A stretch of 50,931 nt of DNA from Thermoplasmatales archaeon. Lineage in GTDB: Archaea > Thermoplasmatota > E2 > DHVEG-1. The stretch covers positions 1-50,931 of the forward strand of contig JBFYMQ010000004.1 in assembly GCA_041304825.1 (NCBI GenBank). Reading direction: 5' to 3'. Of the stretch, positions 31,271-49,190 are shown one piece after another; position 1 is the first letter of the stretch; the number at the start of each line of letters is the position of its first letter. A program made the position numbers and the translations under genes. Under the pieces are notes generated by a model. The model was not told where the DNA came from. It saw only the letters and a program-made list of their open reading frames with translations, and searched no databases.

Positions 31271-31417
31271 TCTGCCTGTTTCTTTTTAAAAATTAACCGG
31301 TTTTACATCTTCAGCGTTTCTTTTGTTACGTCTCTGTGTTACGTCCTTGCTACTCAACAGATACTTTTAATACGCTATGCTTTCTATTTCTTATCATTTC
31401 AGAATGATAGATGATTC

Positions 31418-32288: not shown

Positions 32289-32292
32289 GCAT

Positions 32293-33263: not shown

Positions 33264-33275
33264 TCTGTTCTTCTG

Positions 33276-33965: not shown

Positions 33966-34048
33966 GGAAAGTTATCTCTTTTTAGGGAAAAGTAATTTCG
34001 GGAAAAGATAAGGAAAATTTTTTGTCGGTATTATTAAATAACAAAATA

Positions 34049-35050
34049 ATGATATTTTCTGTTATGAAGAAATTATGGTCGATTCTTCTTCTTGGTGCAC
34101 TCTCAATGCTATTTGCAGAGGTCTTCTCGGGTGCATCGACAGTGTGGTTCCTTGATGCATGGGGTCTGCTGCTTACATATCCCTTGTATCTAGGACATGC
34201 GATATTCTTGCTGAACGTAGCGTTTCTGTGGAAAAAGACATCGCCTCGTCAATTATACTTCTTCGGGATGTTATTTGGGCTGTATGAGGCACTTATCACT
34301 AAAGTCCTCTGGTTTGGATATCCTGCTTCAACAGGTCCTATGGTCGGTTATTTTTTTGGTGTTGCCTGGGGGGAGTTCCTCACATTGGTTCTGTTCTACC
34401 ATCCGATTATGTCTTTTGTTGTGCCGGTGTTTGTGTATGAGTTGCTGAGCAGGGATGTTCTTCCAGGTCATGAACGGTTTTTACAAAAAAATCGGAAATC
34501 GCTCTTGCTCGTCATTATACTGATTGTGATGGGCGCAAGCTTTCAGAGCAATGGATCGAACTATGATGTGGTTCGAGCGGTAGGTTCCATGGGTGGATCA
34601 ATTCTCATAGTCGTTCTGTTGCATGTTCTTTCAAAAGGCAAGAATCTACAATCGCTTGTCCTTGGCAAAAAAGAGATGACCGTCGTGATTGTTTATCTTT
34701 TTGTCTTGTATGGGGTGACGACTATGGTTATTTTCCCTGAGCGTCTGCCAAAAATGATTCTTCCGTATCTGTTGATACTTCTGTGGTATCTGGTTGCTAT
34801 CATTCTGCTCTGGATTGATCGGTTTTCATCTGTGAATGTTGCTCTTAAAAGAACCATTTTCTCTCAGAAAGAGTTGAGGATTTTTGCGTTACTCATCGTG
34901 GGTGTGATTATTATCTGCAGTCTTTTCCAGCAGATGACCTATGGGGTTCTTCTGGTGATGTTTGTGTCACTTATGGGAGCCGGTGTTGGTTTTTTCTCCT
35001 GGTCTCTGATTTCTCTGTTAAAACAAAGAATCATGGGTATAGTACCATGA
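34049..35050 (+). CDS. Polytopic membrane protein (about 8-9 TM), unknown function
   Basis: Hydrophobic throughout. First ATG at 34049 (track start TTG 34022; a further ATG at 34064). Confidence 0.6.
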   Translation: MIFSVMKKLWSILLLGALSMLFAEVFSGASTVWFLDAWGLLLTYPLYLGHAIFLLNVAFLWKKTSPRQLYFFGMLFGLYEALITKVLWFGYPASTGPMVGYFFGVAWGEFLTLVLFYHPIMSFVVPVFVYELLSRDVLPGHERFLQKNRKSLLLVIILIVMGASFQSNGSNYDVVRAVGSMGGSILIVVLLHVLSKGKNLQSLVLGKKEMTVVIVYLFVLYGVTTMVIFPERLPKMILPYLLILLWYLVAIILLWIDRFSSVNVALKRTIFSQKELRIFALLIVGVIIICSLFQQMTYGVLLVMFVSLMGAGVGFFSWSLISLLKQRIMGIVP

Positions 35051-35176
35051 ACTCTGAATGGTCCTTTCATGTACATGGAGCATACGATACCAAATCTATA
35101 CCAGAACAATCGTATGGAACAATGTTTCGGAAATCTCTAATGAGCCGCATGACATAATCAATAATGGTGATAAAAA

Positions 35177-35815
35177 ATGGAAATGGATTTAGAACTCACA
35201 AACATGGAAACAAAAATAAAAAAAGAAATGAAACACTTCATGGCCCTTACCGTTATGAGCCTGGCTTTTGGTGCCATGGCAATGGCGTTTGCGATTGCTA
35301 CGATAACAACGAATGTTTTTGCGTTAACGAAGACGATTTCAAATATGTATTTCATTCTCTCCTCTCTAGTGATTGGGTTTGTTGTAGCATATTTTGCTCT
35401 TCGATATGTGATTTCCAGTGCAGAAGTCATGAGTAAATTTGATGAGATACAAGAAGACGAGAACGGTGAAAAAAATCTACCTTCTGAGCGGATCACTGAA
35501 CGCATCGTTAAACTCATGGGCTTGTACCGCGAGGAAAAACCACAGATTAAAAGAATGATTCTTGTGAGTAAAATCGCAGGCGTCTGCTTTTTTGCAAATG
35601 CACTAATTCAAACCATTATTGTTTTTATAACTTTCAATTCGGGAACGGTTGAATTGATTCCTTCTGTAGGAGGGATACTTGTCAGCCTTATTATGGGCTT
35701 GGTAGGATTTTATCTTCCCTCTTCTTTTCATAAATACGCGATTTGCTGGGACGATCGGCTTGAAAAAAGTGAAGATGCCGAGAAGAAGATGGCGTCTTAT
35801 ATGGAGGAATCCTAG
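35177..35815 (+). CDS. Membrane protein (about 4 TM), unknown function
   Basis: TM segments FMALTVMSLAFGAMAMAFAIATI, YFILSSLVIGFVVAYFAL, IAGVCFFANALIQTIIVFITF, GGILVSLIMGLVGFYL. The antisense 119-aa ORF was rejected. Confidence 0.6.
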   Translation: MEMDLELTNMETKIKKEMKHFMALTVMSLAFGAMAMAFAIATITTNVFALTKTISNMYFILSSLVIGFVVAYFALRYVISSAEVMSKFDEIQEDENGEKNLPSERITERIVKLMGLYREEKPQIKRMILVSKIAGVCFFANALIQTIIVFITFNSGTVELIPSVGGILVSLIMGLVGFYLPSSFHKYAICWDDRLEKSEDAEKKMASYMEES

Positions 35816-36090
35816 TGAATAATCGACGGACCCACTATGAGATTTACTGGGAGATACTGACCTATTGCAAGACGCCTCGATCGATAACTCAGATTATCCA
35901 GCGGTGCAACTTAAACTCCAAGATTGGCCAAGAGTATGTTGATTTTCTCGTATCAAAAGGATACCTTGGAGAAACGATGGAGAAAGACAGATTTCTATTT
36001 GCCACGACACCGGCTGCGAAGGAATATGTGGAGATCTTTATGAAATTATATCTTGAACTATTTAAAAACAGTCCGGAATTTAGACTTTGA
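35815..36090 (+). CDS. Small winged-helix DNA-binding protein (archaeal wHTH type)
   Basis: RRTHYEIYWEILTYCKTPRSITQIIQRCNLNSKIGQEYVDFLVSKGYL. GTG start overlaps the upstream TAG, indicating translational coupling. Confidence 0.6.
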   Translation: MNNRRTHYEIYWEILTYCKTPRSITQIIQRCNLNSKIGQEYVDFLVSKGYLGETMEKDRFLFATTPAAKEYVEIFMKLYLELFKNSPEFRL

Positions 36091-36214
36091 TGGATGTATA
36101 AAACCTTATCCTTTTCGTATACTTCGAATCTAGAGACGACTTCTTGTTTGCGATATAAAATATCTCTGTCTCTTGTTTTCTCATACGTTAGTAAGTTTGT
36201 ATCGTTCCATCTGT

Positions 36215-36925
36215 TTAGTATTTTTTATTAAAAAGATAAAACAATACACCAAGTAAGATCAGATGCAACACAAATCCAATCCCGAGAAAGACATAATCCT
36301 GCTGCCCGGTTGTGAGTAATTTATCTAGTGCCATGAACGTCCAGAAATTCGGTATGATACCAAGGATATATTTGAGATCATTGTTTATGAAGAACGCAAA
36401 CAAGGGGATGTAGAAGACCCCTCCAAGTGTTTTGAACACCGCGAAGGCTTGGACTTTATTGGTTGCAACGATATTTGCCACCAGTCCAAGGACCGGCGTA
36501 AGAAATGCAAGGAGTATCCCAATGGGGAGATAGTCGATAAAACTGGTATCGATCAGACCGGTGAGGAATGGGAAGAGCAGGATATACATGAGTGATAGCA
36601 TGCTGATGAACATCATCCGATAGAGAAGGTAGGTATTCCTTGAGATCGGCATAACCCGTAGGACGGTCAGCAGATTTTCATCCCGTTCATCCATGATGAG
36701 GAATCCGATGACAAAACCAAACATCATGGGGATAGTGATGACGATAAGCATAAACAACAGGGGATAGAACTGCTGAAGCGGGATTACATTTTCTGATAGC
36801 CAGGGAATGACGAGTCTTGTGAAAATAATAATGATCAGTGGTATTAAAAAGGCGGTATAGAGCAGTAACCGGTCTCTGATGATATTTCTGATATCATTGA
36901 GGAGTAATTTTCTTATCTGAACCAT
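36215..36925 (-). CDS. ABC-2-type transporter permease (subunit 2)
   Basis: Six-TM hydrophobic profile. ATG 36925 lies 2 nt after the stop of the upstream permease (track start 37003 is an overlap artefact). Confidence 0.7.
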   Translation of the reverse strand: MVQIRKLLLNDIRNIIRDRLLLYTAFLIPLIIIIFTRLVIPWLSENVIPLQQFYPLLFMLIVITIPMMFGFVIGFLIMDERDENLLTVLRVMPISRNTYLLYRMMFISMLSLMYILLFPFLTGLIDTSFIDYLPIGILLAFLTPVLGLVANIVATNKVQAFAVFKTLGGVFYIPLFAFFINNDLKYILGIIPNFWTFMALDKLLTTGQQDYVFLGIGFVLHLILLGVLFYLFNKKY

Positions 36926-36927
36926 GG

Positions 36928-37629
36928 TCAGCCTCCACGTAGCACAATGTGTTTGTAGAATGCTTTTTTTGCCAGATAATAGCAGCCGACGATCCAGATG
37001 CAAAGATAGGCGAGTGCGTAGATGGTTTCATTAAGTGAAAGGGTGCCAAACACACCTTCGAAGAGGAGGAATGATGCTTGTGATGGCCAGAGGTAAAAGA
37101 TGATGTTGTTGTAGATTCCGGTGATGTCTAATAATGGTGGGAGGAAGAGCAGGAGGAATGCAAGCATCATCATCAACAGATATTCATTGATGCTGTTGCA
37201 TCGTGCCACAAGGATGAACCCAAGCAAGATAAGAAAGATCGAGGTCAGAATAATCCCAGTGACCATATAGAAATATTCAAAATGAATTCCATGGGAAAGG
37301 AAAAGGAAAAGAAACGCAGAGATAACCGACAGTAAAGTAAGGGAAATGATCTTTGAAAAGAAATATGTTCTGGTCTGCATGGGGGTGACGTTGAGTGCTT
37401 GCAGCGTATTTTCTGTTTTTTCAAAAAGGACCAGGGCACCGACGAACATGATGCCGATGAGCGTCGGGTCGAAAAATAAATACAGGGTCTTGAACTCCTC
37501 GGTGTTCATCGATGGAAGTGCAACAAGTGTAACGTAGTAGATAAGGACGCTCAGGATGGAAAGATGGATGATTTTATATCTCGATTGAAGGATGATGTCC
37601 CATTTTAACATCGTTTTCAGCTGCGTCAT
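36928..37629 (-). CDS. ABC-2-type transporter permease (subunit 1)
   Basis: Six-TM profile. The start overlaps the ATPase stop (37626-37629). Confidence 0.7.
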   Translation of the reverse strand: MTQLKTMLKWDIILQSRYKIIHLSILSVLIYYVTLVALPSMNTEEFKTLYLFFDPTLIGIMFVGALVLFEKTENTLQALNVTPMQTRTYFFSKIISLTLLSVISAFLFLFLSHGIHFEYFYMVTGIILTSIFLILLGFILVARCNSINEYLLMMMLAFLLLFLPPLLDITGIYNNIIFYLWPSQASFLLFEGVFGTLSLNETIYALAYLCIWIVGCYYLAKKAFYKHIVLRGG

Positions 37630-38642
37630 TTCAGCTGCCTTCCTGTTACTGTTATGAACACGTCATCAAGGGTCGCTTCCTGGGTATGAATGGTGATGAC
37701 CCGGTTGCTGTTCAGAAGTTTTATGAATGCAAGGTTCGAACCAAGGTTGGCCAAGGTAAATTCTTCTCGTACGATCTCTCCATTGTTGATGTGTTCTACT
37801 CGTACGATTTTTTTGCCATGTTCCAGTTTCAGATCTTTTGGACTTTCGATGAGGACCAATGTTCCATCTACCATAAATCCCACGCGGTCACAGAGTTCGT
37901 CAGCATCGGTCATATTATGAGTTGTTAAGAAAATGGAGGTCCCTTGTTTCTTTTTTTCATTAATGATGTTTTTGATCTGGCGAGCGCTGATTGGGTCAAG
38001 TCCTGTGGTTGGTTCATCAAGGAAAAGCATCTGTGGGTTGTTGAGGAGAGCTCTAGCGAAGTTGAGTTTAGTCTTCATGCCTTTTGAAAAAGAACTCACA
38101 CGTTGGTTTGCGTCTTTGTCCAGGTCAATCATGGCCAGGAGATCATTCGGATCAACCGTTTTACTTTTATAGAATGAACTGAACAGCTCAAGGTTTTCCA
38201 GTGCCGTGAGTTTTTGGTAATGGTTTGGAAATTCGAAACAGACGCCGATGTGTTCATACAGGTCTGTTTTCCAGTTTTTTAGGTTCTTGCCGAGTAATTC
38301 TACGTTTCCGTTGTATCCTTTGAGCAGTCCGATGATGACTTTTTGGGTGGTGCTTTTCCCTGCGCCGTTTGGTCCGAGGAACCCGAAGATTTCTCCTTTT
38401 TTTATCTGAAATGAGACGTTATTCACTGCTTTTTTTCCTGCTTTGGGGTAAGTGAACGTAAGGTTTTGTATGTCAAGGGCATTTGAACCGTCGGTTAGTG
38501 TTCTGTGAGGCATCGATTCTGGGAATCGGAATACACCGTTCATGGTACAGGATGGGCAGGTTACATTGATTTTTTCCCCAGGGTTCCCCTGGATGATAAA
38601 GGTGTTTTTACACTGGGGGCATGCGATGGTTTGTGTCATCAT
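37626..38642 (-). CDS. ABC transporter ATP-binding protein with N-terminal CxxC..CxxC zinc-ribbon extension
   Basis: Walker A GPNGAGKST, signature FSKGMKTKL, Walker B MLFLDEPTTGLD, H-loop TTHNM. N-terminal IACPQCKNTF..VTCPSCTMNG. Confidence 0.9.
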   Translation of the reverse strand: MMTQTIACPQCKNTFIIQGNPGEKINVTCPSCTMNGVFRFPESMPHRTLTDGSNALDIQNLTFTYPKAGKKAVNNVSFQIKKGEIFGFLGPNGAGKSTTQKVIIGLLKGYNGNVELLGKNLKNWKTDLYEHIGVCFEFPNHYQKLTALENLELFSSFYKSKTVDPNDLLAMIDLDKDANQRVSSFSKGMKTKLNFARALLNNPQMLFLDEPTTGLDPISARQIKNIINEKKKQGTSIFLTTHNMTDADELCDRVGFMVDGTLVLIESPKDLKLEHGKKIVRVEHINNGEIVREEFTLANLGSNLAFIKLLNSNRVITIHTQEATLDDVFITVTGRQLK

Positions 38643-38795
38643 CTCATTTCACATCCTCATCCTATCATCTAAATATGTATCCATTTGAGGCCTATAATTT
38701 TTTAGCCGACGGTGATTTATGAAAATACTATTAAAAGAACAGACTATTCATAGCAAAAAAGATAGTCAACAGACAAGCGAATAGGAGACGTTCGA

Positions 38796-39110
38796 ATGAA
38801 GAAAATACGAATTACCGTCCTTAAGACTCTGGTGCAAAAAGAGTTTCAATCATACTGCGGTGTCCCCCTGGAAAAATGCCCCTGCCATTCGGAAGGACAA
38901 GTGTATTTCACCACATACGATAAACCCGAAGGATTTTGCGATTGGGCCTGGAAGGATATCCATCCGTACATCGTATCATTTTTAACAGGAGGGAATTTCA
39001 CAAAAGACATCTTCGAAGACTGGATGAAAGATAAGGATACCATGATTGCGTGCTGTACCGATGGGATACGACCCGTTATCTTTGAAATAAAGTTAATAAC
39101 TAATAAATAG
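38796..39110 (+). CDS. TIGR04076-like small Cys-containing protein
   Basis: MKKIRITVLK.., CPCHSEGQVYF, KPEGFCDWAWKDIHPYI..LTGGNF, ACCTDGIRPVIFEI match my recollection of the TIGR04076 family pattern. Confidence 0.5.
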   Translation: MKKIRITVLKTLVQKEFQSYCGVPLEKCPCHSEGQVYFTTYDKPEGFCDWAWKDIHPYIVSFLTGGNFTKDIFEDWMKDKDTMIACCTDGIRPVIFEIKLITNK

Positions 39111-39161
39111 TAAAAATCTTTGTTCGATGAAATTCTTACTTAAATAAAGGGATTGAAACCT

Positions 39162-40268
39162 ATGACTACACAGAACAAAAAATTCCCTCAAGATCTCCTA
39201 ATTTTTGATGCGCACTGTGACACCGTCCACGACCTCGTCAATCCATCCATCGATTTTAGGAAAAGAAACCAAGGCCATGTCGATCTAAAAAAGATTCAGA
39301 AAGGCGGATTGAAAGCACAGATCTTCGCACTCTACGTCAATCCTGTCTATGCGCCACATCGATCGATCAAAAAAGCTTTGTTGCTGTATCAAACACTTGA
39401 GAAAAAGATTTTTTCCCCAGGATACGGAATCAAGGTAACCTCGACTGCTGAAATGGACTGTGCTGTGAAAAAAAACAAACTCGCCTGCTGGCTGTCTCTA
39501 GAAGGTGGACATATCATTGAAAACTCATTTGAGATCCTTGAGCTCTTTTCTTCACTTGGGATCCGTAGTATGACCCTGACTCATATGAAAAACACTGACT
39601 GGGCGGATTCCTCAGCGGATTCTCCTCGATGGGATGGACTGAACGCACTTGGAAAAAAGATCGTTGCACGCATGCAGGAACTTCATATGATTATCGATGT
39701 CTCTCATGCATCAGATAAAACCGTCGAGGATGTCCTGGATGTCACAGCAGCTCCGTTCATGGCATCTCATTCGAATGCACGGGCGTTATGCGACATCCCG
39801 CGCAACTTACCTGATGATCTCATAAAGGAAATCGCAGATAGGAACGGCTATATTGGCGTGAATTTTTTCCCGGTTTTTCTGAAGAAAACCATTTTTGACC
39901 AAGTAAGTAAAAACGTTGAAAAATATGAACATCAGCATCAGGAAATGCTGCAACAGAAAAGAGACGACCCTGATTTTGTCAGCAAGGCAGAATCAACGCT
40001 GTTCCAAAAGTATGTAGACGGCTCTGATAATGTTGATGTGAATGCGGTCATTGACCATATCGATCATATCTCCGATATTGGCGGAATAGATTGCGTTGGC
40101 CTAGGAAGTGATTTTGATGGGATAAACACCACTCCTACTAATTTAACCGATGTCTCCTGTTACCCTACATTGGTGGAAGGATTAGCTTTAAGAGGATATA
40201 ACACCAAGGAAATCCAGAAGATCATGGGTTTGAATCTCTATCGTTTTTTAAAACAATTTGATCTGTGA
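39162..40268 (+). CDS. Membrane dipeptidase (peptidase family M19, renal-dipeptidase-like)
   Basis: IFDAHCDT, WLSLEGGH, MTLTHMKNTDWADS, IIDVSHASDKT, MASHSNARAL, VGLGSDFDGI. Track start is TTG 39153. Confidence 0.9.
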   Translation: MTTQNKKFPQDLLIFDAHCDTVHDLVNPSIDFRKRNQGHVDLKKIQKGGLKAQIFALYVNPVYAPHRSIKKALLLYQTLEKKIFSPGYGIKVTSTAEMDCAVKKNKLACWLSLEGGHIIENSFEILELFSSLGIRSMTLTHMKNTDWADSSADSPRWDGLNALGKKIVARMQELHMIIDVSHASDKTVEDVLDVTAAPFMASHSNARALCDIPRNLPDDLIKEIADRNGYIGVNFFPVFLKKTIFDQVSKNVEKYEHQHQEMLQQKRDDPDFVSKAESTLFQKYVDGSDNVDVNAVIDHIDHISDIGGIDCVGLGSDFDGINTTPTNLTDVSCYPTLVEGLALRGYNTKEIQKIMGLNLYRFLKQFDL

Positions 40269-40319
40269 TTGAGACAAGGGGAATAAATATTTACGGAAAG
40301 AATTGTTCCATGGAATAGA

Positions 40320-40709
40320 ATGATACGTATTCTTAAAAAAAAAATGGACGTCCAAAAAGAGGACACAATCTCAGTCGTCATAACCCTCTGCTTGCTGCTA
40401 ATCTGGTATCTTACTCTTGTCTTGTTCAACTACCCCTTAGCAAGCCTCTTATTTCTCTGGGTCGGGATGATCGTCTTATCGATAGTCTATTACATCGTCT
40501 ATAGGAAGAAAAAGCGTGATATGAGGATATTCAAAATACGGTTCTTTGTATCAGCAGTACCAATCTATTCCGCACTCATTTTTTATGTGATTGCCTTGCT
40601 ATACGGAAAAGGGATGCCCAGTATTTTTCGATTCATGCCCATTGGCATCATCGGAACCATGTTGCTCCTTAACGCAGGAGTGGTCTATTGTTTTTCTCAA
40701 AGCAAATGA
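40320..40709 (+). CDS. Small 4-TM membrane protein, unknown function
   Basis: Hydrophobic segments VVITLCLLLIWYLTLVLF, LLFLWVGMIVLSIVYYIVY, FFVSAVPIYSALIFYVIALLY, IGIIGTMLLLNAGVVYCF. Confidence 0.5.
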   Translation: MIRILKKKMDVQKEDTISVVITLCLLLIWYLTLVLFNYPLASLLFLWVGMIVLSIVYYIVYRKKKRDMRIFKIRFFVSAVPIYSALIFYVIALLYGKGMPSIFRFMPIGIIGTMLLLNAGVVYCFSQSK

Positions 40710-40834
40710 CTCGATTTTACTTGCTCTTATACTTTTTCCAAGGTTATCTTTGGCTTGAAATTCTCTCAAAATATTTTAACCTTGTGACCGAAAAACATCA
40801 CCGGTTCTCATCCCGCATATTTTATATACACTAG

Positions 40835-41989
40835 ATGATTTTATCGCTCCCCATGGATTTTGACTTGACAAATAATTCAGTAGTCACTTATACACCCTTA
40901 GCAGGATACACCCTCCCCAACCTCTTTCGAATACTTGCACAGAACCACTTCCACATTAGCCCTCGGTACGCAGCACGGTTTGCCTACAGTATGGCTCTTA
41001 GTACTATCATGAGTCCGTTCTATATCAGAGAACGTGTTAAATATGACAAATCCACCGAAGCAACACCAATTAAAAAAGACCCGATTTTCATTATTGGTCA
41101 TTGGCGCTGCGGAACGACACTCATGCATAACATCCTGGCACGGGACCAACAGTTCGGGTACTTCACGACCTGTCAAACCCTGATTCCTTCTATTTTTATC
41201 AGCGGTGAAAAACTCTTCAAGCCTATCGTTGTCGCAAGTCTTCCAAAGAAACGACCGATGGATGACGGAGACCTCGGTGCAGATCTCCCTCAAGAAGATA
41301 TCTACGCTCTTGGTGCGCTCTCCCCGTACTCATACTACCACGGTTGGTGCTTCCCTCGGAATATGGCACATTACAACAACTACATTGATTTTAAGAACGC
41401 CTCCCCGCAGACCATTGAAGACTGGAAAAATACCTACCTGTTCCTTTTAAAAAAAATAACCATGTTCCACCAAGGTAAACAGCTGATCTTGAAGAATCAG
41501 GATAACACGGGGAAGATACCGCAACTTTTGGAGATGTTCCCGGACGCGAAATTCATTTACATGTACCGCAACCCCTATGATCTTTACATGTCCATGCTGA
41601 AGTTCATGCGAAAGGTCATCCCGCTGTACTGCGTACAAACCCCACCACCTCTGAAGGACGTTGAAGATTATATGATGACTTTATTTACACATATGACAAA
41701 GAAATACCTCCAGGATAAACCTCTCATCCCTGAGGAGAACCTTGTGGAAGTGCGGTATGAAAGCTTCATCAATCAACCGCTGGTCTCCGTCAGTACCCTT
41801 TATAAAAAATTCAACCTCGATGGATACCAAGACATCGAGCATTCCATGAAAGCGTATCTTGCGACACAGAAAACAATTCATATGGACAACTATACCTTCA
41901 CCGATTCGATAAAAAAGAAAATCGAGAACCATTGGGGCTTCGCACTCAAAGAATACCAATACAAACATCCGCAGGAAGAAATCTGCTAA
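40835..41989 (+). CDS. Cytoplasmic PAPS-type sulfotransferase family protein
   Basis: 5'-phosphosulfate-binding loop IFIIGHWRCGTTLMHNIL. Later block FIYMYRNPYDLYMSML. No signal peptide. Confidence 0.75.
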   Translation: MILSLPMDFDLTNNSVVTYTPLAGYTLPNLFRILAQNHFHISPRYAARFAYSMALSTIMSPFYIRERVKYDKSTEATPIKKDPIFIIGHWRCGTTLMHNILARDQQFGYFTTCQTLIPSIFISGEKLFKPIVVASLPKKRPMDDGDLGADLPQEDIYALGALSPYSYYHGWCFPRNMAHYNNYIDFKNASPQTIEDWKNTYLFLLKKITMFHQGKQLILKNQDNTGKIPQLLEMFPDAKFIYMYRNPYDLYMSMLKFMRKVIPLYCVQTPPPLKDVEDYMMTLFTHMTKKYLQDKPLIPEENLVEVRYESFINQPLVSVSTLYKKFNLDGYQDIEHSMKAYLATQKTIHMDNYTFTDSIKKKIENHWGFALKEYQYKHPQEEIC

Positions 41990-42044
41990 ATGGATTCCAT
42001 AAAAAAGTTTCAAATCACGTCTGAAAAAAAAGTTGAAATCGTTT

Positions 42045-42386
42045 TTATCCCACTGTCTTTGACTGATTATAACTATTTTTTATAAACGATATTATTTTCT
42101 TTAGGTCAGATGTTTCATCAACTGGTATTTGTGGCCACCCCTTCATTATCCTCGTTGCTGCTTGGAAGGGTTTAATCATAAATTCTTGGGATAATTTCAT
42201 TTTATCTTGTTCACTTGCTTTCGTAAGAACCACACCATCTGTTACGAGAAATCCAAATAATTTATCATTATATTTGTAACAAGGACACCCATACATTTTT
42301 TTTGTTGTCACATCAGGCCAACTCAGAATCTCTTTTTCCAATCTCACTCTGAGATTCTTCATTTTTTCTTCATTGTAATATTGCAT
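42045..42386 (-). CDS. TfoX-N/YjbR-like small protein (weak assignment)
   Basis: VTTKKMYGCPCYKYNDKLFGFLVTDGVVLTK resembles the MFGG.gy..ng.mFa.i.dd.lylK block of TfoX_N/YjbR-type folds. Confidence 0.35.
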   Translation of the reverse strand: MQYYNEEKMKNLRVRLEKEILSWPDVTTKKMYGCPCYKYNDKLFGFLVTDGVVLTKASEQDKMKLSQEFMIKPFQAATRIMKGWPQIPVDETSDLKKIISFIKNSYNQSKTVG

Positions 42387-42420
42387 GGTAACATGTTATG
42401 ATTTATGATATTAATAAAGA

Positions 42421-42586
42421 GATGCTTCCATCCTGATTGCGTACCAAGACTTCAGAATCCCCCCAGGCGGGAGAATTGAAGGTCTGGCAGAAAATATTCC
42501 GGGGGGATTGCTTGCTAGAGGTTCAATGCCCATCCAATATTTTGTCGATTTTAAGAAACCAGAGAGAAAGCATTGACACGGTTTTC
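42421..42586 (+). repeat. Intergenic structured repeat, copy A (core 42439-42535 plus trailing motif AGCATTGACACGGTTTTC)
   Basis: Aligns by eye with copies at 48119-48269 and 49036-49190. Shared string ..CCAAGACTTCAGA..GGGAGA..TGAAGGTCTGGCAGAAAAT..GATTGCTTGCTAGAGGTTCAATGCCC. Confidence 0.7.
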
Positions 42587-42600
42587 CCTTAGGAGCGAAA

Positions 42601-42628
42601 AGCAAAAAAAAGAAAAAAAGAGGTGGAG
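42601..42628 (-). terminator. Oligo-T terminator (minus strand) after ASST-like copy 1
   Basis: Plus-strand agcaaaaaaaagaaaaaaagagg reads as T7-8 runs on the minus strand directly after the stop at 42629. Confidence 0.55.
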
Positions 42629-43858
42629 TTAGAATCCCATGAGATGCCGAAGCAAGGGGAATGCATGTGGAAATCGCACAAGTAACCTCGCAAGAAACCC
42701 ATGCTGTTCGATATTATGGCTAAACGGTGTGGTGAGCGTGACAGGGATCATGCAGTAATCGCTACTGTTATCCTTATTGACTATTGTGATATTTCCTTGG
42801 AACCCTGCGTTCTTCTCCGGGGGTACAACCATGTACACATGTACGGTCACTGACCCCTGTGCCGGTGTAATGTTCTCACCGGACGACGGTTTGAACGTCC
42901 ACGCCCCCCATGTCAATGTATTGTTCACGGTCCAGTTCAGCAGCGAGTCGTTATCCCCGATGTTCATCACCTGGAAACTGCCATGCACAGTCGCCCCTGG
43001 TTTGATGTTCGACCAAGAGAGGCTCCCGTTGCATTCGAGATCAGGGAGATGCTGCTGTGGGGGCGGTGGTGGTTCATACGGTGGTATGTACTGGGTGCGG
43101 TAGACTTCGGCATGTTGGTACGGATAAGGGTTAACGAAGGTCCAGACGATTTGTTTGTCTGGTGTGACCTCGATGAAAACCCCGTTCCATCCGGAGCAGA
43201 TAAGGGTATTGTTGTTGAGCATTCGTTGGGCACCGCCAAAGCCGTCGGAGAAGAGGTCTTCCGGCAGCATATACTGCCAGGTGAGATCAGCTGGGCCATA
43301 GGTTCCTCCAGGCGGAAGATAGTATTCGCCAGTGTCGTTGTTTACATCGGGGGTGATTTCATCGACGCTTGAGATAGGGCCTCCAGGGCGGGTGTTGCCG
43401 TTTGAGAAGACAAGGATGTGTCCTGCGCCGGGAAGACCAGGTTTGACCCAGCAGCATTGATGTTGGAAGCAGAGTTTTTTATCACTAGCGTCTCCTCGAT
43501 CGTAGGTCTGGGGGTTACCCCAGCGGTAGAGCAGATCACCACCGTGGCCGTAAATGCCGCCCTCGTGGCTTGCCGCTTCCTCAGTAGTTGTACTGTGATC
43601 GATGATCCAGACCTCGTCAAAATTATGAGCACTGATGAGGACTTGGTCAAACTGCGGGTTGTAGTCCACGGAGTTGAAATAAGGCCAGCCAGGGCTCCAG
43701 TATTGGTCGAAGTTGATGTTGGCAAGTTCAGGATACTGGCTGACAATACCGTAGTTGTCTTTGCTAGCGTCAAAATCCTGGATGAGGTGGTCCCAGACGT
43801 GCCATTCCCAGACAATGTCGCCGCTGGTTGGTCCGGTCTGGTGGACCTGGATGAGCAT
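42629..43858 (-). CDS. Arylsulfotransferase (ASST)-like beta-propeller protein, copy 1, downstream ORF (C-terminal ~3/4) with Pro-rich linker, Ig/CARDB-like domain and conserved tail
   Basis: GDIVWEWHVWDHL, NSVDYNPQFDQVLISAHNFDEVWIIDHSTTTEEAASHEGGIYGHGGDLLYRWGNPQTYDRG and CFQHQCCWV..ILVFSNGN match the ASST family pattern. Tail VRFPHAFPLLRHLMGF. It lacks its own signal peptide; that is encoded by the upstream out-of-frame ORF. Confidence 0.75.
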   Translation of the reverse strand: MLIQVHQTGPTSGDIVWEWHVWDHLIQDFDASKDNYGIVSQYPELANINFDQYWSPGWPYFNSVDYNPQFDQVLISAHNFDEVWIIDHSTTTEEAASHEGGIYGHGGDLLYRWGNPQTYDRGDASDKKLCFQHQCCWVKPGLPGAGHILVFSNGNTRPGGPISSVDEITPDVNNDTGEYYLPPGGTYGPADLTWQYMLPEDLFSDGFGGAQRMLNNNTLICSGWNGVFIEVTPDKQIVWTFVNPYPYQHAEVYRTQYIPPYEPPPPPQQHLPDLECNGSLSWSNIKPGATVHGSFQVMNIGDNDSLLNWTVNNTLTWGAWTFKPSSGENITPAQGSVTVHVYMVVPPEKNAGFQGNITIVNKDNSSDYCMIPVTLTTPFSHNIEQHGFLARLLVRFPHAFPLLRHLMGF

Positions 43859-44247
43859 ATTTGGGTAGAATTGTCATGAGTCGCGTAACTGCTGTCTCGT
43901 GTATAGTGATATTCCCAGAGAACTGTACTATCATAGGCGATTTTTTGGAATCCACCTTGACCGGAATCGATAGCGAGGAAAATGGAACCATTCTCCCCCA
44001 TGTAGGAGTCATATAAGGGGTAATAGGCACTCTGCCAGGTGTGGTTGACGGCACCGGTTTCATTGATGAGATACGTCGTCTTCGAATGCCACGGGGTGTA
44101 GAGGAAGTGGCCTTCCTTGCGATCGAGCGGCAAAGGTTGTATCAGGTTCTCTATGTTCTGTGAAAGAGCTCCGGAATTGAACAGACTCGCCGTGAAAAGG
44201 GTAGCGGTAATCAGCACCACGATTTTAACGAAAATCTTATGGCTCAT
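43342..44247 (-). CDS. ASST-like copy 1, upstream ORF: signal peptide plus first propeller part (only 43859-44247 is homologous; the rest is an out-of-frame S/T-rich read-through)
   Basis: MSHKIFVKIVVLITATLFTASLF.., HFLYTPWHSKTTYLINETGAVNHTWQS..YATHD. The frame then departs (STQICSSRSTRP..) exactly where the downstream ORF's homology begins (FYPN-MLIQVHQ). Confidence 0.6.
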   Translation of the reverse strand: MSHKIFVKIVVLITATLFTASLFNSGALSQNIENLIQPLPLDRKEGHFLYTPWHSKTTYLINETGAVNHTWQSAYYPLYDSYMGENGSIFLAIDSGQGGFQKIAYDSTVLWEYHYTRDSSYATHDNSTQICSSRSTRPDQPAATLSGNGTSGTTSSRILTLAKTTTVLSASILNLPTSTSTNTGALAGLISTPWTTTRSLTKSSSVLIILTRSGSSITVQLLRKRQATRAAFTATVVICSTAGVTPRPTIEETLVIKNSASNINAAGSNLVFPAQDTSLSSQTATPALEALSQASMKSPPM

Positions 44248-44368
44248 GTCTCATCCTCATTTGAAATTTTTAAACAGGAAGGGTGCTTCGTGTTCTATCC
44301 AGTTGCCAACATGCACGAACGCTGGTTTCGGTATAGATATCCCCTTTAATGTAGTAAGGCTCCGGGGG

Positions 44369-44382
44369 ATATATAAAAATAT
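44369..44382 (-). promoter_or_regulatory. TATA-like box (minus strand TTTTTATATAT) upstream of ASST-like copy 1
   Basis: Lies ~120 nt upstream of ATG 44247 within the duplicated, highly conserved non-coding segment. GAGGATGAG RBS-like sequence lies 5 nt before the ATG. Confidence 0.4.
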
Positions 44383-44480
44383 GCCTGATTTTCTTTAATA
44401 ATCACAATATTAATGACTGCCTCAGACTTTTTATGTGACTCTTAAACGATTCATTAGATTATTCCCTTTAGAAATTATAT

Positions 44481-44599
44481 GTCCTAGGATTTCTGGACCC
44501 TTACCTGCAGAGAAGTGAATATTTAATAGAAAAAGCTTCTGGGAAATTGCTTATTCGAGGTTCGAGGCTACCCAATTAAAGAGCATTGACATGGTTTTC
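44481..44599 (+). repeat. Intergenic structured repeat, copy D (degenerate; 3' module and trailing AGCATTGACATGGTTTTC conserved)
   Basis: GGGAAATTGCTTATTCGAGGTTCGAGGCTACCC aligns with the 3' module of the other copies. The 5' half is strongly diverged. Confidence 0.5.
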
Positions 44600-44600
44600 T

Positions 44601-44622
44601 TAATAAGAAAAAAAATTTGGGT
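44601..44622 (-). terminator. Oligo-T terminator (minus strand) after ASST-like copy 2
   Basis: Plus-strand agaaaaaaaattt reads as a T8 run on the minus strand right after the stop at 44623. Confidence 0.55.
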
Positions 44623-45864
44623 TCAGTACCCCAGCAGATGTCGTAGGAGTGAAAATCCATGCGGGAATCGCTCGAACAACCACGAAATGATCAGGTTGTT
44701 GGATAGGGCTGTTACACTGGCTGAGGTCGTCAAAGTGACCGGGATGTCGACGTAGTCGGAGGCGTTGTCCCTGTTCTCTACGCGGAGGGTTCCATCAAAC
44801 ATCTGGTTTTTCTCGTTTGGGACTACAACGTACACCTGTACAGTGAAGGGCCCTGCCCCCGGGAAGAGGTTTGCCCCAGATGCAGGGATAAACGTCCACG
44901 TCCCCCAGGTGATGGTGTTGTTAATAGTCCAGTTCAGCAACGAGTCGTTATCCCCGATGTTCATCACCTGGAAACTGCCATGCACAGTCGCCCCTGGTTT
45001 GATGTTCGACCAAGAGAGGCTCCCGTTGCATTCGATATCAGGGTGAGACGGCGGGGGTGGCGGTGGTGGTGGCGGTGGCACATACGGGGGTATGTATTGG
45101 GTGCGGTAGACTTGGTCGTATTGATTCGGGTAGGGGTTGATGAAGGTCCAGACCACTTCCATTTCTGGTGTGACCTCGATGAAAACCCCGTTCCATCCGG
45201 AGCAGATAAGGGTATTGTTGTTGAGCATTCGTTGGGCACCGCCAAAATAGTAGGAATAGAGGTCTTCCGGCAGCATATACTGCCAGGTGAGATTATCCGG
45301 GCCATAGGTTCCCCCAGGCGGAAGATAGTATGCACCCGTGTCATTGTCGACATCAGGAGTGAACTCATCGACGCTTGAGATAGGGCCTCCAGGGCGGGTT
45401 ACGCCGTTGGAGAAGACGAGGATGTTACCTGCACCGGGAAGACCAGGTTTGATCCAGCCGCTTTGATGTTGGAAGCAGAGTTTTTTATCACTAGCGTCCC
45501 CTCTATCGTAGGTCTGGGGGTTGCCCCAGCGGTAGATCAGATCGCCACCGTGGCCGTAAATGCCGCCCTCGTGGCTTGCGGCTTCTTCTGTTGTAGTGCT
45601 GTGGTCGATAACCCAGACCTCATCGAAGTTGTGGGCGCTGATGAGGATTTGGTCGAACTTGGGGTTGTAGTCCACAGAGGTAAAATAGGGCCAGCCGGTG
45701 CACCAAGGTTGGTCGAAGTTGATGTTGGCAAGTTCAGGATGCTGACTGATATTACCATAGTTATTTTTGCTAGCGTCGAAATCCTGGATGAGGTGGTCCC
45801 AGACGTGCCATTCCCAGACAATGTCGCCGCTGGTTGGTCCGGTCTGGTGGACCTGGATGAGCAT
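44623..45864 (-). CDS. ASST-like protein, copy 2, downstream ORF (C-terminal ~3/4) with poly-Pro linker, Ig-like domain and conserved tail
   Basis: Collinear with ORF 42629..43858 and roughly 85% identical at the protein level by eye. Linker PPYVPPPPPPPPPPSHPD. Tail FERFPHGFSLLRHLLGY. Confidence 0.75.
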   Translation of the reverse strand: MLIQVHQTGPTSGDIVWEWHVWDHLIQDFDASKNNYGNISQHPELANINFDQPWCTGWPYFTSVDYNPKFDQILISAHNFDEVWVIDHSTTTEEAASHEGGIYGHGGDLIYRWGNPQTYDRGDASDKKLCFQHQSGWIKPGLPGAGNILVFSNGVTRPGGPISSVDEFTPDVDNDTGAYYLPPGGTYGPDNLTWQYMLPEDLYSYYFGGAQRMLNNNTLICSGWNGVFIEVTPEMEVVWTFINPYPNQYDQVYRTQYIPPYVPPPPPPPPPPSHPDIECNGSLSWSNIKPGATVHGSFQVMNIGDNDSLLNWTINNTITWGTWTFIPASGANLFPGAGPFTVQVYVVVPNEKNQMFDGTLRVENRDNASDYVDIPVTLTTSASVTALSNNLIISWLFERFPHGFSLLRHLLGY

Positions 45865-46247
45865 ATTTGGGTAGAATGAGTGGCGTAGCTGCTATCTCGT
45901 GTGTAGCGGTAATCCCAGAGGATTGTGCCGTCGTACGCAATTTTTTGGATTCCACCTCGGCCTGATTGGATGGTGAGGTAGATGGAGCCGTTATCTCCCA
46001 TATAAGAGTCATATAAGGGGTAATAGGTACTCTGCCATGTGTGGTTGACGACGCCGGTTTCATTGATGAGATAGGTGGTCTTCGAATGATATGGGGTGTA
46101 GAGGAAGTGGCCTTCATTGCGATCGAATGGTGGAGGTGTTATCAGGTTCTCCATCTTCTGTGAAAGAGCTCCGGAATTGAATAGACTCGCCGTAAAAAGG
46201 GCGGCGGTAATCAGCGCTACGATTTTGATATAATTCTTCTTGTTCAT
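45537..46247 (-). CDS. ASST-like copy 2, upstream ORF (signal peptide plus first propeller part; only 45865-46247 is homologous)
   Basis: MNKKNYIKIVALITAALFTASLF.., same architecture and same frame break as copy 1 (..YATH | STQICSSRSTRP.. versus FYPN-MLIQVHQ). Confidence 0.6.
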   Translation of the reverse strand: MNKKNYIKIVALITAALFTASLFNSGALSQKMENLITPPPFDRNEGHFLYTPYHSKTTYLINETGVVNHTWQSTYYPLYDSYMGDNGSIYLTIQSGRGGIQKIAYDGTILWDYRYTRDSSYATHSTQICSSRSTRPDQPAATLSGNGTSGTTSSRISTLAKITMVISVSILNLPTSTSTNLGAPAGPILPLWTTTPSSTKSSSAPTTSMRSGLSTTALQQKKPQATRAAFTATVAI

Positions 46248-46368
46248 GTCTCATCCTCATTTGAAATCTTTAAACAGGAAGGATACTTCGTGTTCTATCC
46301 AGTTGCCAACATGCACGAACGCTGGTTTTGGTATAGATATCCTCCTTAATGTAGTAAGGCTCCGGGGG

Positions 46369-46382
46369 ATATATAAAAATAT
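46369..46382 (-). promoter_or_regulatory. TATA-like box upstream of ASST-like copy 2 (duplicate of 44369-44382)
   Basis: Identical ggggatatataaaaatatgcc context. Confidence 0.4.
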
Positions 46383-46496
46383 GCCTGATTTTCTTTAATA
46401 ATCACAATATTAATGACTGTCTCAGACTCTTTACGTTACTCTCAAATGATTCCTCTGTGGAGTTTTTACGTAGAGACCCAAAGTCTCTTTGCTACC

Positions 46497-48029
46497 TCAT
46501 CGCTTTAAAATGGAGAGGATGAGAATTTGCGTACCCTCGGCAATTTTGGTCGCTTCGCCGACCATCGTGGTTACCTGGATGCCGCCAAGACCGAAGAACA
46601 TGCCAGTCCCGATCGTCTTTGTCTCTCCGACGGCGACGTCGACAGTCCCACTTACGGTATGGTTCATCCGGTGAAGGATGCCGCCCTGGACATGGACCTG
46701 CCATGGGACATTGGTCGCGTTCGCGGTCCCGTTATTGGTGATCTTCACATGGATGCCTAGGCCACCTGTAGCCGTGAATGAGAGTTCGGGCGTTCCATGC
46801 TCTTGTGCGAATTTTATCACCCAGACGTCACCGTTGTAGTACCCGGTGGACGACCCAGCGATGATATACCCGCCGTCACTAGTCTGTTGTCCACCGGTGA
46901 ACGGCATGGGGATTGTGATGTTCCATGCTTCGTTCCCGGAGCTGTCGGTCTTGATGAGCCCGTAGCCGGTCGCGATGTAGCCGCCATCTGTTGTCTGTTT
47001 CGCGGAGTAGCCAAAGAACGTTGCATCATTCAGAAACGGGGTATTACGCCATGTTTCATTGCCGTTTGTGTCGGTCTTTAACAAACACCCTAGGTAATTC
47101 ATCGCTCCTGCGATGATGAAGCCGCCGTCGCATGTCTGTTGCACCGAGTTGCCGTAGTTCTTTAATCCGACGCGGACTTGGCCGTTGGTTTCCTCGAATT
47201 TTTTATCCCAAACCACGATGCCGCTGGCATCTGTTTTGATAAGCCAGATTTTTCCCCAGTCTGTGTCGTAGTTGCAATCAGACATCCCTGTGAGGATGTA
47301 CCCGCCGTTTGAAGTCTCTTGGACCATGTGACCTTCTTCATCCATGTCGCTTACTCCGTAAGTTCTCAGCCATTGAATGGCTCCATCTGAGAATGTCTTC
47401 AAGAGGTACATGTCTGGAGAGCCGTCGGTGCTTGCATTGCCACCGCCGGTCGCGATGTATCCGCCGTCGCGGGTCTGTCGAACACAGAAGCACCATGAGT
47501 AGTTCAGGCCAGCGTACGTCCTGTTCCATTCCTCATTCCCCTGGGAGTCTGTTTTGATGAGCACAGTCGAGGAGATGAATCCAATCTTGGATTTTAGCGT
47601 CGCATTAAAGAACGTGCACCCAAGGATGTATCCGTCGTCAGCAGTCTGTTGGACTGACCATATCTTCCCTGAGACCGACGGGAGAGTATAGTAATCAAAC
47701 GTCTTGTTCCACTCCATGGTTCCATTGGAGTCGGTCTTGATCAGCCATGGGTTCCAGAGAGCGATACCGAAAGATTTCGCGTACCCCGCGATGATGTATC
47801 CTCCATCGTTGGTCTGTTGTATGTCATAGGCGGCATCATCGATATTTGGGCCACCAAACGTCTTATTCCATTCCTCCGCTGGAGGAATCCCTCCCAGCAT
47901 TTCTGGACGACCATCAGAAACGGTAAGATGCTGATTCGAACCACCACTGATGCACGAGGTGATACACACACCAAGCAACAAGACAAGCATTTCGAAGACA
48001 ACGCTTTTTTTAACAATGTCTCTAGTCAT
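46497..48029 (-). CDS. Secreted/lipoprotein-like beta-propeller repeat protein (about 7-8 repeats) with C-terminal Ig/CARDB-like domain
   Basis: Repeats of Q(Q/T)T.DGGYI(I/A/L).G......(W/Y)L(I/L)KTD..G...W(N/R).T (TNDGGYIIAGY, TADDGYILGC, TRDGGYIATGG, TSNGGYILTGM, TCDGGFIIAGA, TTDGGYIATGY, TSDGGYIIAGS). Signal/lipobox-like MTRDIVKKSVVFEMLVLLLGVCITSC from ATG 48029 (GGGAG ~10 nt upstream; track start 48083). Confidence 0.75.
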   Translation of the reverse strand: MTRDIVKKSVVFEMLVLLLGVCITSCISGGSNQHLTVSDGRPEMLGGIPPAEEWNKTFGGPNIDDAAYDIQQTNDGGYIIAGYAKSFGIALWNPWLIKTDSNGTMEWNKTFDYYTLPSVSGKIWSVQQTADDGYILGCTFFNATLKSKIGFISSTVLIKTDSQGNEEWNRTYAGLNYSWCFCVRQTRDGGYIATGGGNASTDGSPDMYLLKTFSDGAIQWLRTYGVSDMDEEGHMVQETSNGGYILTGMSDCNYDTDWGKIWLIKTDASGIVVWDKKFEETNGQVRVGLKNYGNSVQQTCDGGFIIAGAMNYLGCLLKTDTNGNETWRNTPFLNDATFFGYSAKQTTDGGYIATGYGLIKTDSSGNEAWNITIPMPFTGGQQTSDGGYIIAGSSTGYYNGDVWVIKFAQEHGTPELSFTATGGLGIHVKITNNGTANATNVPWQVHVQGGILHRMNHTVSGTVDVAVGETKTIGTGMFFGLGGIQVTTMVGEATKIAEGTQILILSILKR

Positions 48030-48118
48030 GAAATCATACTCCCTTAATCTTCTGATGAATGTTATAATATCAGGAAGATTCATTTAAATGTTTGGAATCA
48101 ATAAAAATAAGAGATGAA

Positions 48119-48269
48119 AGCAATGGTATGGTTTTTTCTCCTGTTAGATGAGTAGTAAGTGCTCCCGTCGGGAATACGCACCAAGACCTCAGAGCTCCCA
48201 AGGGTGGGAGATGTGAAGGTCTGGCAGAAAATCCCAACAGGGAAATGCTTGTTAGAGGTTCAATGCCCC
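48119..48269 (+). repeat. Intergenic structured repeat, copy B (full length; leading AGCAATGGTATGGTTTTTTC motif plus core)
   Basis: About four-fifths identical by eye to copy C. Nested hairpin AGACCT(48184-89)/AGGTCT(48217-22) and CTCCCA(48195-200)/TGGGAG(48205-10). 3' GAGGTTCAATGCCCC. Confidence 0.7.
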
Positions 48270-48331
48270 ATGAATACTCTGGTTTAGCAAAATATAAATA
48301 ATATGTAAGATATAACTTACATTGATTGAAA

Positions 48332-48601
48332 ATGGTTGAAATTGCAATAACTAAAATTAGCTCGAAAGGACAAATCGTCATACCTGCCCATCTACGAAAA
48401 AGCTTTGCTCAGGGAGAAGAACTCCTTATTATAAAAAAAAAAGATCAAGTCATCCTCCAACGACTGACTGATATCGATAAAAAATTTAAAGAAGATCTCG
48501 CCTTTGCCTTAAAGACTGAAAAGATGCTGAAGAAGTACGATCGAGGGGAGTTTAAACAGAAATCTGCAAAAGAGTTCCTAAAAGAGTTAGAGAAATGGTA
48601 A
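48332..48601 (+). CDS. AbrB/SpoVT-family antitoxin
   Basis: MVEIAITKISSKGQIVIPAHLRKSF..GEELLIIKK is a classic swapped-hairpin AbrB/MazE N-domain. Its stop overlaps the toxin start (ATGGTAA). Track start is TTG 48326. Confidence 0.8.
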   Translation: MVEIAITKISSKGQIVIPAHLRKSFAQGEELLIIKKKDQVILQRLTDIDKKFKEDLAFALKTEKMLKKYDRGEFKQKSAKEFLKELEKW

Positions 48602-48843
48602 CCGTATCGTACCACCCCTCTTTTGAAAAGCAAATAAGAAAAATTAAAAATGAAGGGTTAAAACAGCGGATAAAACAACAGATTCAAAAAATTATAGAAA
48701 ATCCTGAAATTGGTAAACCAATGAGGTTCGGACGAAAAGGAACCCGAGAATTGTATATTTCCTCTTTTAGACTTTCATACCTCTATGAACAAGACGATGA
48801 GAGGGTTGTGTTGCTTTCCTTCTACCATAAGGATGAACAATAA
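48595..48843 (+). CDS. RelE/ParE-family toxin (type II TA system)
   Basis: 82 aa. IIENPEIGKPMRFGRKGTRELYISSFRLSYLYEQDDERVVLLSFYHKDEQ matches the RelE/ParE pattern (..P..G.pl.g.l.g.r.lr.g.yRl.Y.i......v.ll...hR). Confidence 0.8.
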   Translation: MVTVSYHPSFEKQIRKIKNEGLKQRIKQQIQKIIENPEIGKPMRFGRKGTRELYISSFRLSYLYEQDDERVVLLSFYHKDEQ

Positions 48844-48970
48844 AAAGTATTTTCGAATAGGGTTACAAAATAATATCACCCCTTTATATTTATATCTTAT
48901 CTTTCATATTTATTCGGAATAAAAGCTCCATTTTTTCGTATTTTTTAAGGAATTATCAAAATCAAAAAAT

Positions 48971-49020
48971 GGGGTTAAAATCCCCTCGGAGGAATGCTTG
49001 CTAGGAGTTCAATGCTACCG
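48971..49020 (+). repeat. Intergenic structured repeat, partial copy P (3' module only)
   Basis: AAAATCCCCTCGGAGGAATGCTTGCTAGGAGTTCAATGCTACC aligns with the last ~50 nt of copies A, B and C. Confidence 0.6.
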
Positions 49021-49035
49021 AAGGGTCTAAAAAAA

Positions 49036-49190
49036 ATACCGTTTTTTCTCCTGTTGAGCGAGTATAAAGTGCTCCCGTCGGGAATACGTGCCAAGACTTC
49101 AGAGCCCCCAAGGGTGGGAGACGTGAAGGACTGACATAAAATCCCCCCGAAGGATTACTCGCTAGAGGTTCAAATCCCCCAGGTTTTATT
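49036..49190 (+). repeat. Intergenic structured repeat, copy C (full length) followed by a T-run
   Basis: Same order of blocks as copy B. 3' end GAGGTTCAAATCCCCC is followed by AGGTTTTATT. Confidence 0.7.

Follow-up and report, generated by a model that had tools for sequence, protein, structure and literature searches.

The window analysed here, the full 50.9-kb stretch of contig JBFYMQ010000004.1 from a Thermoplasmatales archaeon, contains five copies (A, D, B, P and C) of an intergenic repeat. We propose, with a probability of about 0.66, that these repeats are attachment (att) sites, or relics of such sites, produced by successive site-specific integrations at the 3′ end of a tRNA-Glu(CUC) gene in a Thermoplasmatota archaeon. 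The repeats are homologous to tRNA-Glu, they exchange arms around a short common core, breakpoints between related contigs fall at the edges of that core, and copies of the core flank discrete gene segments.

Homology of the repeats to the 3′ end of tRNA-Glu

We compared the window with related contigs and loci, labelled L001, L020 and so on; about ten Thermoplasmatota contigs carry the core, and the alignment of the element comprises 19 distinct copies. In one of them, L066, an intact tRNA-Glu(CTC) gene at positions 117–191 of the plus strand heads the equivalent gene array. The gene has the same orientation as all L066 copies, which lie downstream of it at 2193, 6201 and 10051, all on the plus strand. 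The end of this tRNA, …AAATCCCGACGGGAGCA, together with the next ~26 nucleotides (nt), TATTCTCTTCGTCCAACAGGGGA, aligns with copies B and C at their minus-strand end, …GTATTCCCGACGGGAGCA followed by CTTTATACTCGCTCAACAGGAGA. Over the ends of B, C, L096x and a solo core in L061, the alignment of tRNA 3′ end and flank spans 39–46 nt with all 14 core bases exact, and its score is reached by 0 of 500 shuffles. Because of this alignment, the block GTGCTCCCGTCGGGAATACG and the T-rich stretch preceding it are the reverse complement of the tRNA-Glu(CUC) 3′ end and ~26 nt of its native downstream flank. The tRNA-derived portion of the copies corresponds to the last 14–17 nt of tRNA-Glu, and the 5′ acceptor strand is missing.

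An earlier note on this DNA had placed the tRNA resemblance elsewhere, in a T-loop or T-arm motif, GGTTCAA. That motif lies at the other end of the element, on the strand opposite to the tRNA-derived block, and in 17 of the 19 copies it resembles the tRNA no more than expected by chance, the exceptions being C and the near-identical copy of L021. The actual tRNA piece is thus the reverse complement of the GTGCTCCCGTCGGGAATACG block. In copy C (49165–49176) and in L021, the sequence GGTTCAAATCCC matches the tRNA-Glu T arm exactly over 12 nt, in an orientation opposite to that of the tRNA-3′-end block, while all other copies have GGTTCAATGCCC at this position, which matches no better than chance. 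The 12-nt match in C may be a coincidence or the product of gene conversion. The copies were also considered as tRNA genes or pseudogenes and rejected as such: ARAGORN finds 0 tRNA or tmRNA genes in the window and none at any copy, no cloverleaf is detected, and the 5′ acceptor strand is lacking.

Organization of the copies in the window

A full copy, read on the minus strand, which is the sense strand of the genes flanking the copies, runs from a ~100-nt left arm (H1–H3) to the 14-nt core TCCCGACGGGAGCA and then, in B and C, to ~30 nt of tRNA-flank homology (F1). The features are as follows, with the extents of whole copies taken from a hidden Markov model (HMM).

42422–42540, minus strand: copy A, an arm with a decayed core, AATCAGGATGGAAGCATC, at 42421–42438
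42569–42600, minus strand: F1/X-like flank, TTCGCTCCTAAGGGAAAACCGTGTCAATGCT on the minus strand, directly after the stop codon and T-run of arylsulfotransferase paralog 1
44476–44578, minus strand: copy D, an arm with a decayed core, starting 45 nt past the stop codon of arylsulfotransferase paralog 2
44582–44598, minus strand: F1/X-like motif between the paralog 2 stop codon with its T-run and copy D
48119–48159, minus strand: right flank F1 of copy B with companion motif X, …CTAACAGGAGAAAAAACCATACCATTGCT on the minus strand
48159–48277, minus strand: copy B, whole
48160–48173, minus strand: core of copy B, reading TCCCGACGGGAGCA on the minus strand
48174–48277, minus strand: left arm of copy B (H1–H3)
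48326–48843, plus strand: MazE/AbrB–ParE toxin-antitoxin pair, antisense to the array, between C/P and B
48977–49019, minus strand: copy P (partial), arm H1–H2 only, after F1
49040–49069, minus strand: right flank F1 of copy C, CTTTATACTCGCTCAACAGGAGAAAAAACG on the minus strand, homologous to the native tRNA-Glu downstream sequence
49069–49185: copy C, whole
49070–49083, minus strand: core of copy C, TCCCGACGGGAGCA, the last 14 nt of tRNA-Glu(CUC), comprising the T-stem 3′ strand, the acceptor 3′ strand and the discriminator
49084–49185, minus strand: left arm of copy C (H1–H2–H3, ~100 nt), starting 69 nt past the stop codon of the FG-GAP gene (49254)

A search for the 3′ block TGCTTGYTAGAGGTTCAA with at most 3 mismatches gives five matches in the window, all on the plus strand and all within 42.5–49.2 kb, against a shuffle expectation of 0.11. 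An HMM built from the copies and scanned over the window detects no copy beyond these five, which are all intergenic and confined to 7 kb, the other 44 kb being empty. The five locations given in the earlier note, the intergenic placement and the single shared orientation are therefore borne out, and the shared blocks and hairpins that it described are present in the sequence. Its companion motif, AGCAWTG..AYGGTTTT, is found at 42569, 44582 and 48119. Two further details of its description need correction. The block GGTTCAAATCC, listed as shared, occurs in copy C alone, the remaining copies carrying GGTTCAATGCC, and the TATA-like A/T-rich stretches upstream of copies are promoters of adjoining minus-strand genes, as with TTTATTAATA, which precedes the ATG at 42386 by ~30 nt. 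Copy D, which had been called degenerate, does have a decayed core; however, it represents a conserved subtype with orthologues in L061 (9677–9779) and L065 (1235–1336), and is not merely a product of decay.

The copies differ in composition and setting. Copy A starts 89 nt past the stop codon of arylsulfotransferase paralog 1 and ends 36 nt before a YjbR-like gene; it is chimeric, its 5′ part resembling L066a and its 3′ part L066c. In copy B, the F1/X flank runs into the promoter of the beta-propeller gene (46497–48083). The composite represented by copy P (core, F1 and H1–H2) is found again in L096 (5539–5656), L020 and L066. In copy C, H2 of the left arm is a palindrome of the TCC-N-GGA type and H3 a long, imperfect inverted repeat, CCAGTCCTTCA...TGAAGTCTTGG; the F1 flank of this copy lies within a 40-nt alignment to tRNA-Glu and flank whose score is matched by 0 of 500 shuffles. 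The F1/X-like flank at 42569–42600 is present without the element in L067 and partly present in L065.

Across the window and related loci, 12 of 14 full copies lie 5–111 nt past a co-oriented stop codon; copy B and the L067 copy have no co-oriented gene upstream. This placement, together with hairpin prediction and a bias toward G·U pairs that both favour the minus strand, identifies the minus strand as the meaningful orientation.

Arms and segments are exchanged around the core

We searched the related loci for the core with the 13-mer CCCGACGGGAGCA, allowing at most 2 mismatches. The core TCCCGACGGGAGCA (13–14 nt) is joined to at least four classes of left arm and to several right arms across about ten related contigs. 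Specifically, the left arm is the ~100-nt H1–H3 arm in most copies, a real tRNA in L066, a decayed T arm in L096 (at 5644, ~380 nt past the window end), and, in L061 (5936) and L021 (5171), a common sequence of the form ‘GGATTTATACnCGTGGA…AAAT-core’. The right arms include the tRNA-type flank F1, a type with the F1 motif inverted, and others. In the inverted type, the 15-mer after the core, usually CAACAGGAGAAAAAA, appears as TTTTTTCTCCTGTTG ~8–10 nt past the core (L020 6938–6965, L024 ~1195–1215 and L061 405–435), which suggests an inversion or a second arm type holding the same motif.

Breakpoints between genomes fall at the core. Synteny between the window and L021, which is 98% identical, ends exactly at 49070; synteny with L041 begins at 42421; and synteny with L061 begins at 48173, the 5′ edge of the copy B core. 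Segments between direct copies of the core measure 0.6–5.5 kb and hold a flavodoxin gene, a toxin-antitoxin pair, an ars/thioredoxin block or a UbiA block. The largest, at 392–5957 of L061, is a 5.5-kb block bounded by the 22-nt direct repeat TCCCGACGGGAGCACTTnATTC, with core copies at 392 and 5936, and contains no recognisable integrase. Its genes encode an ArsR-type regulator, an ArsP permease, thioredoxin, CMD, DUF2703, DGC and DsbD-like proteins. Two proteins beside this block, of 203 and 195 amino acids, were considered as recombinases and set aside: their translations are not integrase-like on inspection, and their precomputed Pfam entries are empty. The flavodoxin gene lies between core copies in L061 (11917–12479) and also in L041, with no counterpart in the window. 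L021 has a 3.7-kb block between cores at 1410 and 5171, and L066 has a 3.7-kb block of eight genes between L066a and L066c, in place of which the window has the single chimeric copy A. Conversely, the toxin-antitoxin pair found between C/P and B in the window is missing at the equivalent place in L066.

The related contigs come from several searches. JGI contig Ga0209288_10000107 (L001) also encodes a window protein and, save for one gap, is identical to window positions 30835–45867; homologues of the neighbouring arylsulfotransferase carry the names of Candidatus Thermoplasmatota metagenome-assembled genomes. A pattern scan of species-representative genomes gave 18 matches, all in unrelated bacteria or haloarchaea and taken as chance; the species with these copies is therefore not represented in that genome collection. 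The same scan on metagenome contigs recovered true relatives (L020, L021, L024, L027, L041, L060 and L038) amid chance matches, and contigs around arylsulfotransferase homologues added copies in L061, L065, L066 and L067. No copy was found in the more distant relatives L062–L064.

This distribution bears on the possibility that the repeat is a non-autonomous mobile element, akin to a miniature inverted-repeat transposable element (MITE) or a short interspersed element (SINE), that carries or targets the tRNA-Glu tail and spread by transposition, a candidate named in the earlier note. A multi-copy family of 110–130-nt units with hairpins and with degenerate and partial members would suit such an element, as would the few copies in other contexts (L024, L067 and L061a). 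However, the window copies are clustered in one variable region rather than dispersed as insertions, no terminal inverted repeats were found, the copies all face the same way with respect to the tRNA, different genomes have kept orthologous copies, and no transposase is seen. We consider spread by transposition very unlikely.

A model of serial integration at tRNA-Glu

In the model that we favour, a tyrosine-type integrase, encoded outside the DNA examined, would catalyse recombination between two cores, one carried by an incoming circular element and the other belonging to the tRNA gene or to an earlier copy. Every integration would add one core copy and displace older insertions away from the tRNA. 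The mobility genes of the elements would then be lost, and the remainder would consist of co-oriented cargo genes with att copies between them, the cargo being arylsulfotransferases, FG-GAP and beta-propeller secreted proteins, the toxin-antitoxin pair, flavodoxin and metal/redox genes. Segments would subsequently be deleted or rearranged as copies recombine with one another. We infer both the recombinase and the function of the ~100-nt arm, which would serve as an element-side accessory binding region for it; within the arm lie an 11-bp inverted repeat and a palindrome of the TCC-N-GGA type that resembles the core.

The repeats show the features of an att site in the form of a displaced tRNA fragment, namely a block of identity to the tRNA 3′ end, copies in direct orientation downstream of an intact tRNA (in L066), and segments found in some relatives but not in others, with the breaks falling at the repeat. 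In published work, islands with scattered partial tRNAs have been taken to preserve a history of earlier integrations, in which each new arrival displaces its predecessors inward (10.1101/2020.12.28.424599; PMC4383910). The earlier note had listed decayed att duplicates among its candidates; this idea fits the evidence, although the tRNA-derived part and its orientation were misplaced there.

Several observations weigh against serial integration. There is no intact tRNA-Glu in the window or within 7 kb past its end, and no integrase or recombinase family (e.g. Phage_integrase) appears among the genes of the window or of L001, L020, L021, L024, L038/L096 and L061–L067. No free attP, virus or plasmid match was obtained: IMG/VR gives none for the core pattern and only chance matches for a looser pattern, and the GenBank phage and PLSDB plasmid sets give nothing. 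The segments between copies are mostly single genes, far below the usual size of an integrative element, and the regular placement of full copies shortly past co-oriented stop codons is not predicted by simple island decay. An excess of G·U pairs over A·C mismatches on the gene-sense strand (80 versus 42) would suit an RNA role as well, and homologous recombination between repeats could be the source of some of the same breakpoints.

Since a single gene with a closely following site and co-oriented arrays are not predicted by the decay of large islands, there is some room for integron-like capture. Here a gene and its ~125-nt element would form a mobile unit, the element acting like attC and the tRNA-Glu 3′ end like attI, and single-gene cassettes would be stacked at the tRNA-Glu 3′ end in an active Thermoplasmatota system by a recombinase encoded elsewhere in the genome. 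In keeping with such a system, most full copies closely follow a co-oriented stop codon, the arrays are nearly all co-oriented, units of cassette size (0.6–2.5 kb), including the toxin-antitoxin pair, vary between relatives, and crossovers occur at the element 3′ end. On the other hand, the element ends lack R″/R′ boxes (RYYYAAC/GTTRRRY), there is no single long imperfect hairpin, no IntI-like gene is found among the genes of the window and fetched loci, some copies (B and L067) have no upstream gene, and the many-gene blocks of 5.5 and 3.7 kb also lie between cores. An integron-like system of this kind is unlikely; if real, it would be a cassette platform with no sequence relation to bacterial integrons. 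The specific assignment of the element as an integron attC was rejected: its ends, GGGGCATTGAACC… and …CGGGAGCA, are off the boxes and not complementary, and its folds consist of separate hairpins, three or four in number. Strings resembling GTTRRRY are confined to the F1 flank, and in L066 the array is headed by a tRNA gene, not IntI with attI.

If the repeats are att sites or their relics, as we favour, the family need not be misannotated as a small RNA (sRNA) or tRNA-like RNA. The analysis defines a variable region downstream of tRNA-Glu in an uncultured Thermoplasmatota lineage, in which secreted-protein, toxin-antitoxin and metal/redox genes are swapped between close relatives, and the 14-nt core with its arms provides a marker for mapping such islands in metagenome-assembled genomes. 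The cassette-like regularity with which a gene is paired with a site behind it might reflect a gene-capture mechanism in Archaea.

Tests for RNA and coding functions of the copies

In the hairpins 78% of cells pair, compared with 30–57% in controls with slid partners. On the plus strand, RNAalifold predicts 0 pairs; on the minus strand it predicts parts of a long hairpin, with many G·U pairs. Covariation does not exceed that of shuffles. Over 33 pairs in the 19 distinct copies, covariation scores 0.164, where shuffles average 0.174; pairs changed on both sides number 8 against 9.9 in shuffles, and 111 of 500 shuffles reach the observed percentage paired. On neither strand do copies A and C fold better than shuffled sequence; copy B has a fold z-score of −3.25 on the minus strand. 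Rfam returns nothing at the gathering threshold and nothing credible at E ≤ 10, the best scores, 17 and 16 bits, falling far short of the respective thresholds of 208 and 150.

These results weigh heavily on the main proposal of the earlier note, an independently transcribed ~140-nt structured sRNA or tRNA-like RNA on the plus strand. Its basis was the GGTTCAA motif, to which can be added the 12-nt exact match of copy C to the tRNA-Glu T arm, and the A/T-rich stretches upstream. But the T-arm match is at chance in nearly all copies, the A/T-rich stretches are promoters of neighbouring genes, there is no conserved terminator, and neither ARAGORN nor Rfam gives a credible match. With no pairs predicted by RNAalifold on that strand, where the stems require A·C mismatches, no covariation above shuffles, and co-oriented genes on the other strand, the plus strand was the wrong one to read. 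The proposal is largely refuted, and we regard it as extremely improbable.

A second RNA reading places a cis-acting RNA on the minus strand, as a stabiliser in the 3′ untranslated region, a terminator module or a 3′-derived sRNA with an incidental tRNA-like tail. The copies lie directly downstream of co-oriented genes, RNAalifold finds hairpins on the minus strand only, with many G·U pairs, G·U pairs outnumber A·C mismatches 80 to 42 in a count over five hand-defined helices, copy B folds well on this strand, and the element is about as conserved as neighbouring coding DNA. This reading is nevertheless opposed by a covariation score below the shuffle mean, by a percentage paired that shuffles often match, and by the folds of A and C, which do not exceed shuffled sequence. 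In A and D, moreover, a long T-run, an archaeal termination signal, separates the stop codon from the element, which disfavours read-through from the upstream gene. Copy B and the copy in L067 lack a co-oriented gene before them, and the exchange of arms around the core would be left unexplained. A cis-acting RNA is thus doubtful, and we give it a small probability.

A small protein, or a fragment of a split SSV-type integrase with an att site, was considered and rejected: several copies have stops in every frame, and no Pfam or PHROGs match was obtained. The translated element shares no words with any protein in a set of 5.8 billion sequences. Because ARAGORN, Rfam, RNAalifold, covariation, reading-frame and protein-word tests are all negative, we regard the copies as neither RNA genes nor coding.

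Neighbouring genes

The toxin-antitoxin pair comprises MazE/AbrB-type antitoxin and ParE-type toxin genes that overlap by 7 nt, and the exact toxin protein is found on 15 contigs. The secreted protein encoded at 46497–48083 (minus strand) has no Pfam match and consists of 5–7 repeats of a ~55-residue unit with a ‘TxDGGYI’ motif; these repeats appear as 34–41-nt DNA repeat families at 111–330 nt spacing.

The arylsulfotransferase-like genes (42629–46350 in the window, and in related loci) belong to a family for which 7,997 of 8,000 candidates scored at E ≤ 1e-20. Arrays in these Thermoplasmatota carry several paralogs apiece, all with a proline run (PPPPP…) ahead of a C-terminal domain. Relative to every related contig, the window is short by 101 nt (at 43872/43873) and by 107 nt (at 45875/45876) inside its two paralogs, while L001 and L096, from the same sample, carry intact genes of 573 and 577 amino acids. 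Each gap directly follows a ~98-nt stretch identical in both paralogs (43773–43870 and 45778–45875), and L001 ends there. Given the intact genes, the adjoining identical stretch and the end of L001, the split, frameshifted open reading frames in the window are probably an assembly artefact. A selenocysteine insertion sequence (SECIS) or an in-frame stop in these genes was rejected, as what looks like a break in the frame is a ~101-nt gap found in the window alone.

Comparison with known systems

Integron attC sites and cassette arrays have been reported in Archaea as well (PMC9668308). Unlike integrons, the arrays described here have no R″/L″/L′/R′ boxes, no single bulged hairpin and no IntI, and their site derives from a tRNA 3′ end. 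They resemble integron arrays in their co-oriented units of gene and repeat, in a toxin-antitoxin cassette, in the similarity of repeats within an array, and in crossover at the repeat 3′ end.

The region is also reminiscent of the tycheposon-shaped islands of Prochlorococcus (10.1101/2020.12.28.424599), which are adjacent to tRNA genes, in which newcomers push older elements inward, and which retain cargo and scattered partial tRNAs. It differs from them in belonging to another domain and lineage, in showing no recombinase or replication module of the tycheposon type, and in having a large non-tRNA arm in the repeat.

Displaced tRNA-gene fragments (attL/attR) of tRNA-integrated genomic islands, including tandem ones, are catalogued in the Islander database (PMC4383910) and known from archaeal tyrosine integrases (PMC8371274), whose att sites favour the tRNA 3′ end and can extend past the gene (PMC8371274). 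In contrast to such islands, no integrase is found here, the intervening segments are mostly single genes, a ~100-nt conserved arm accompanies most copies, and the identity block is short (14 nt in the gene) and extends into the downstream flank. As with displaced tRNA fragments, however, a block identical to the tRNA 3′ end stands in direct repeat downstream of the tRNA and bounds segments that vary between relatives.

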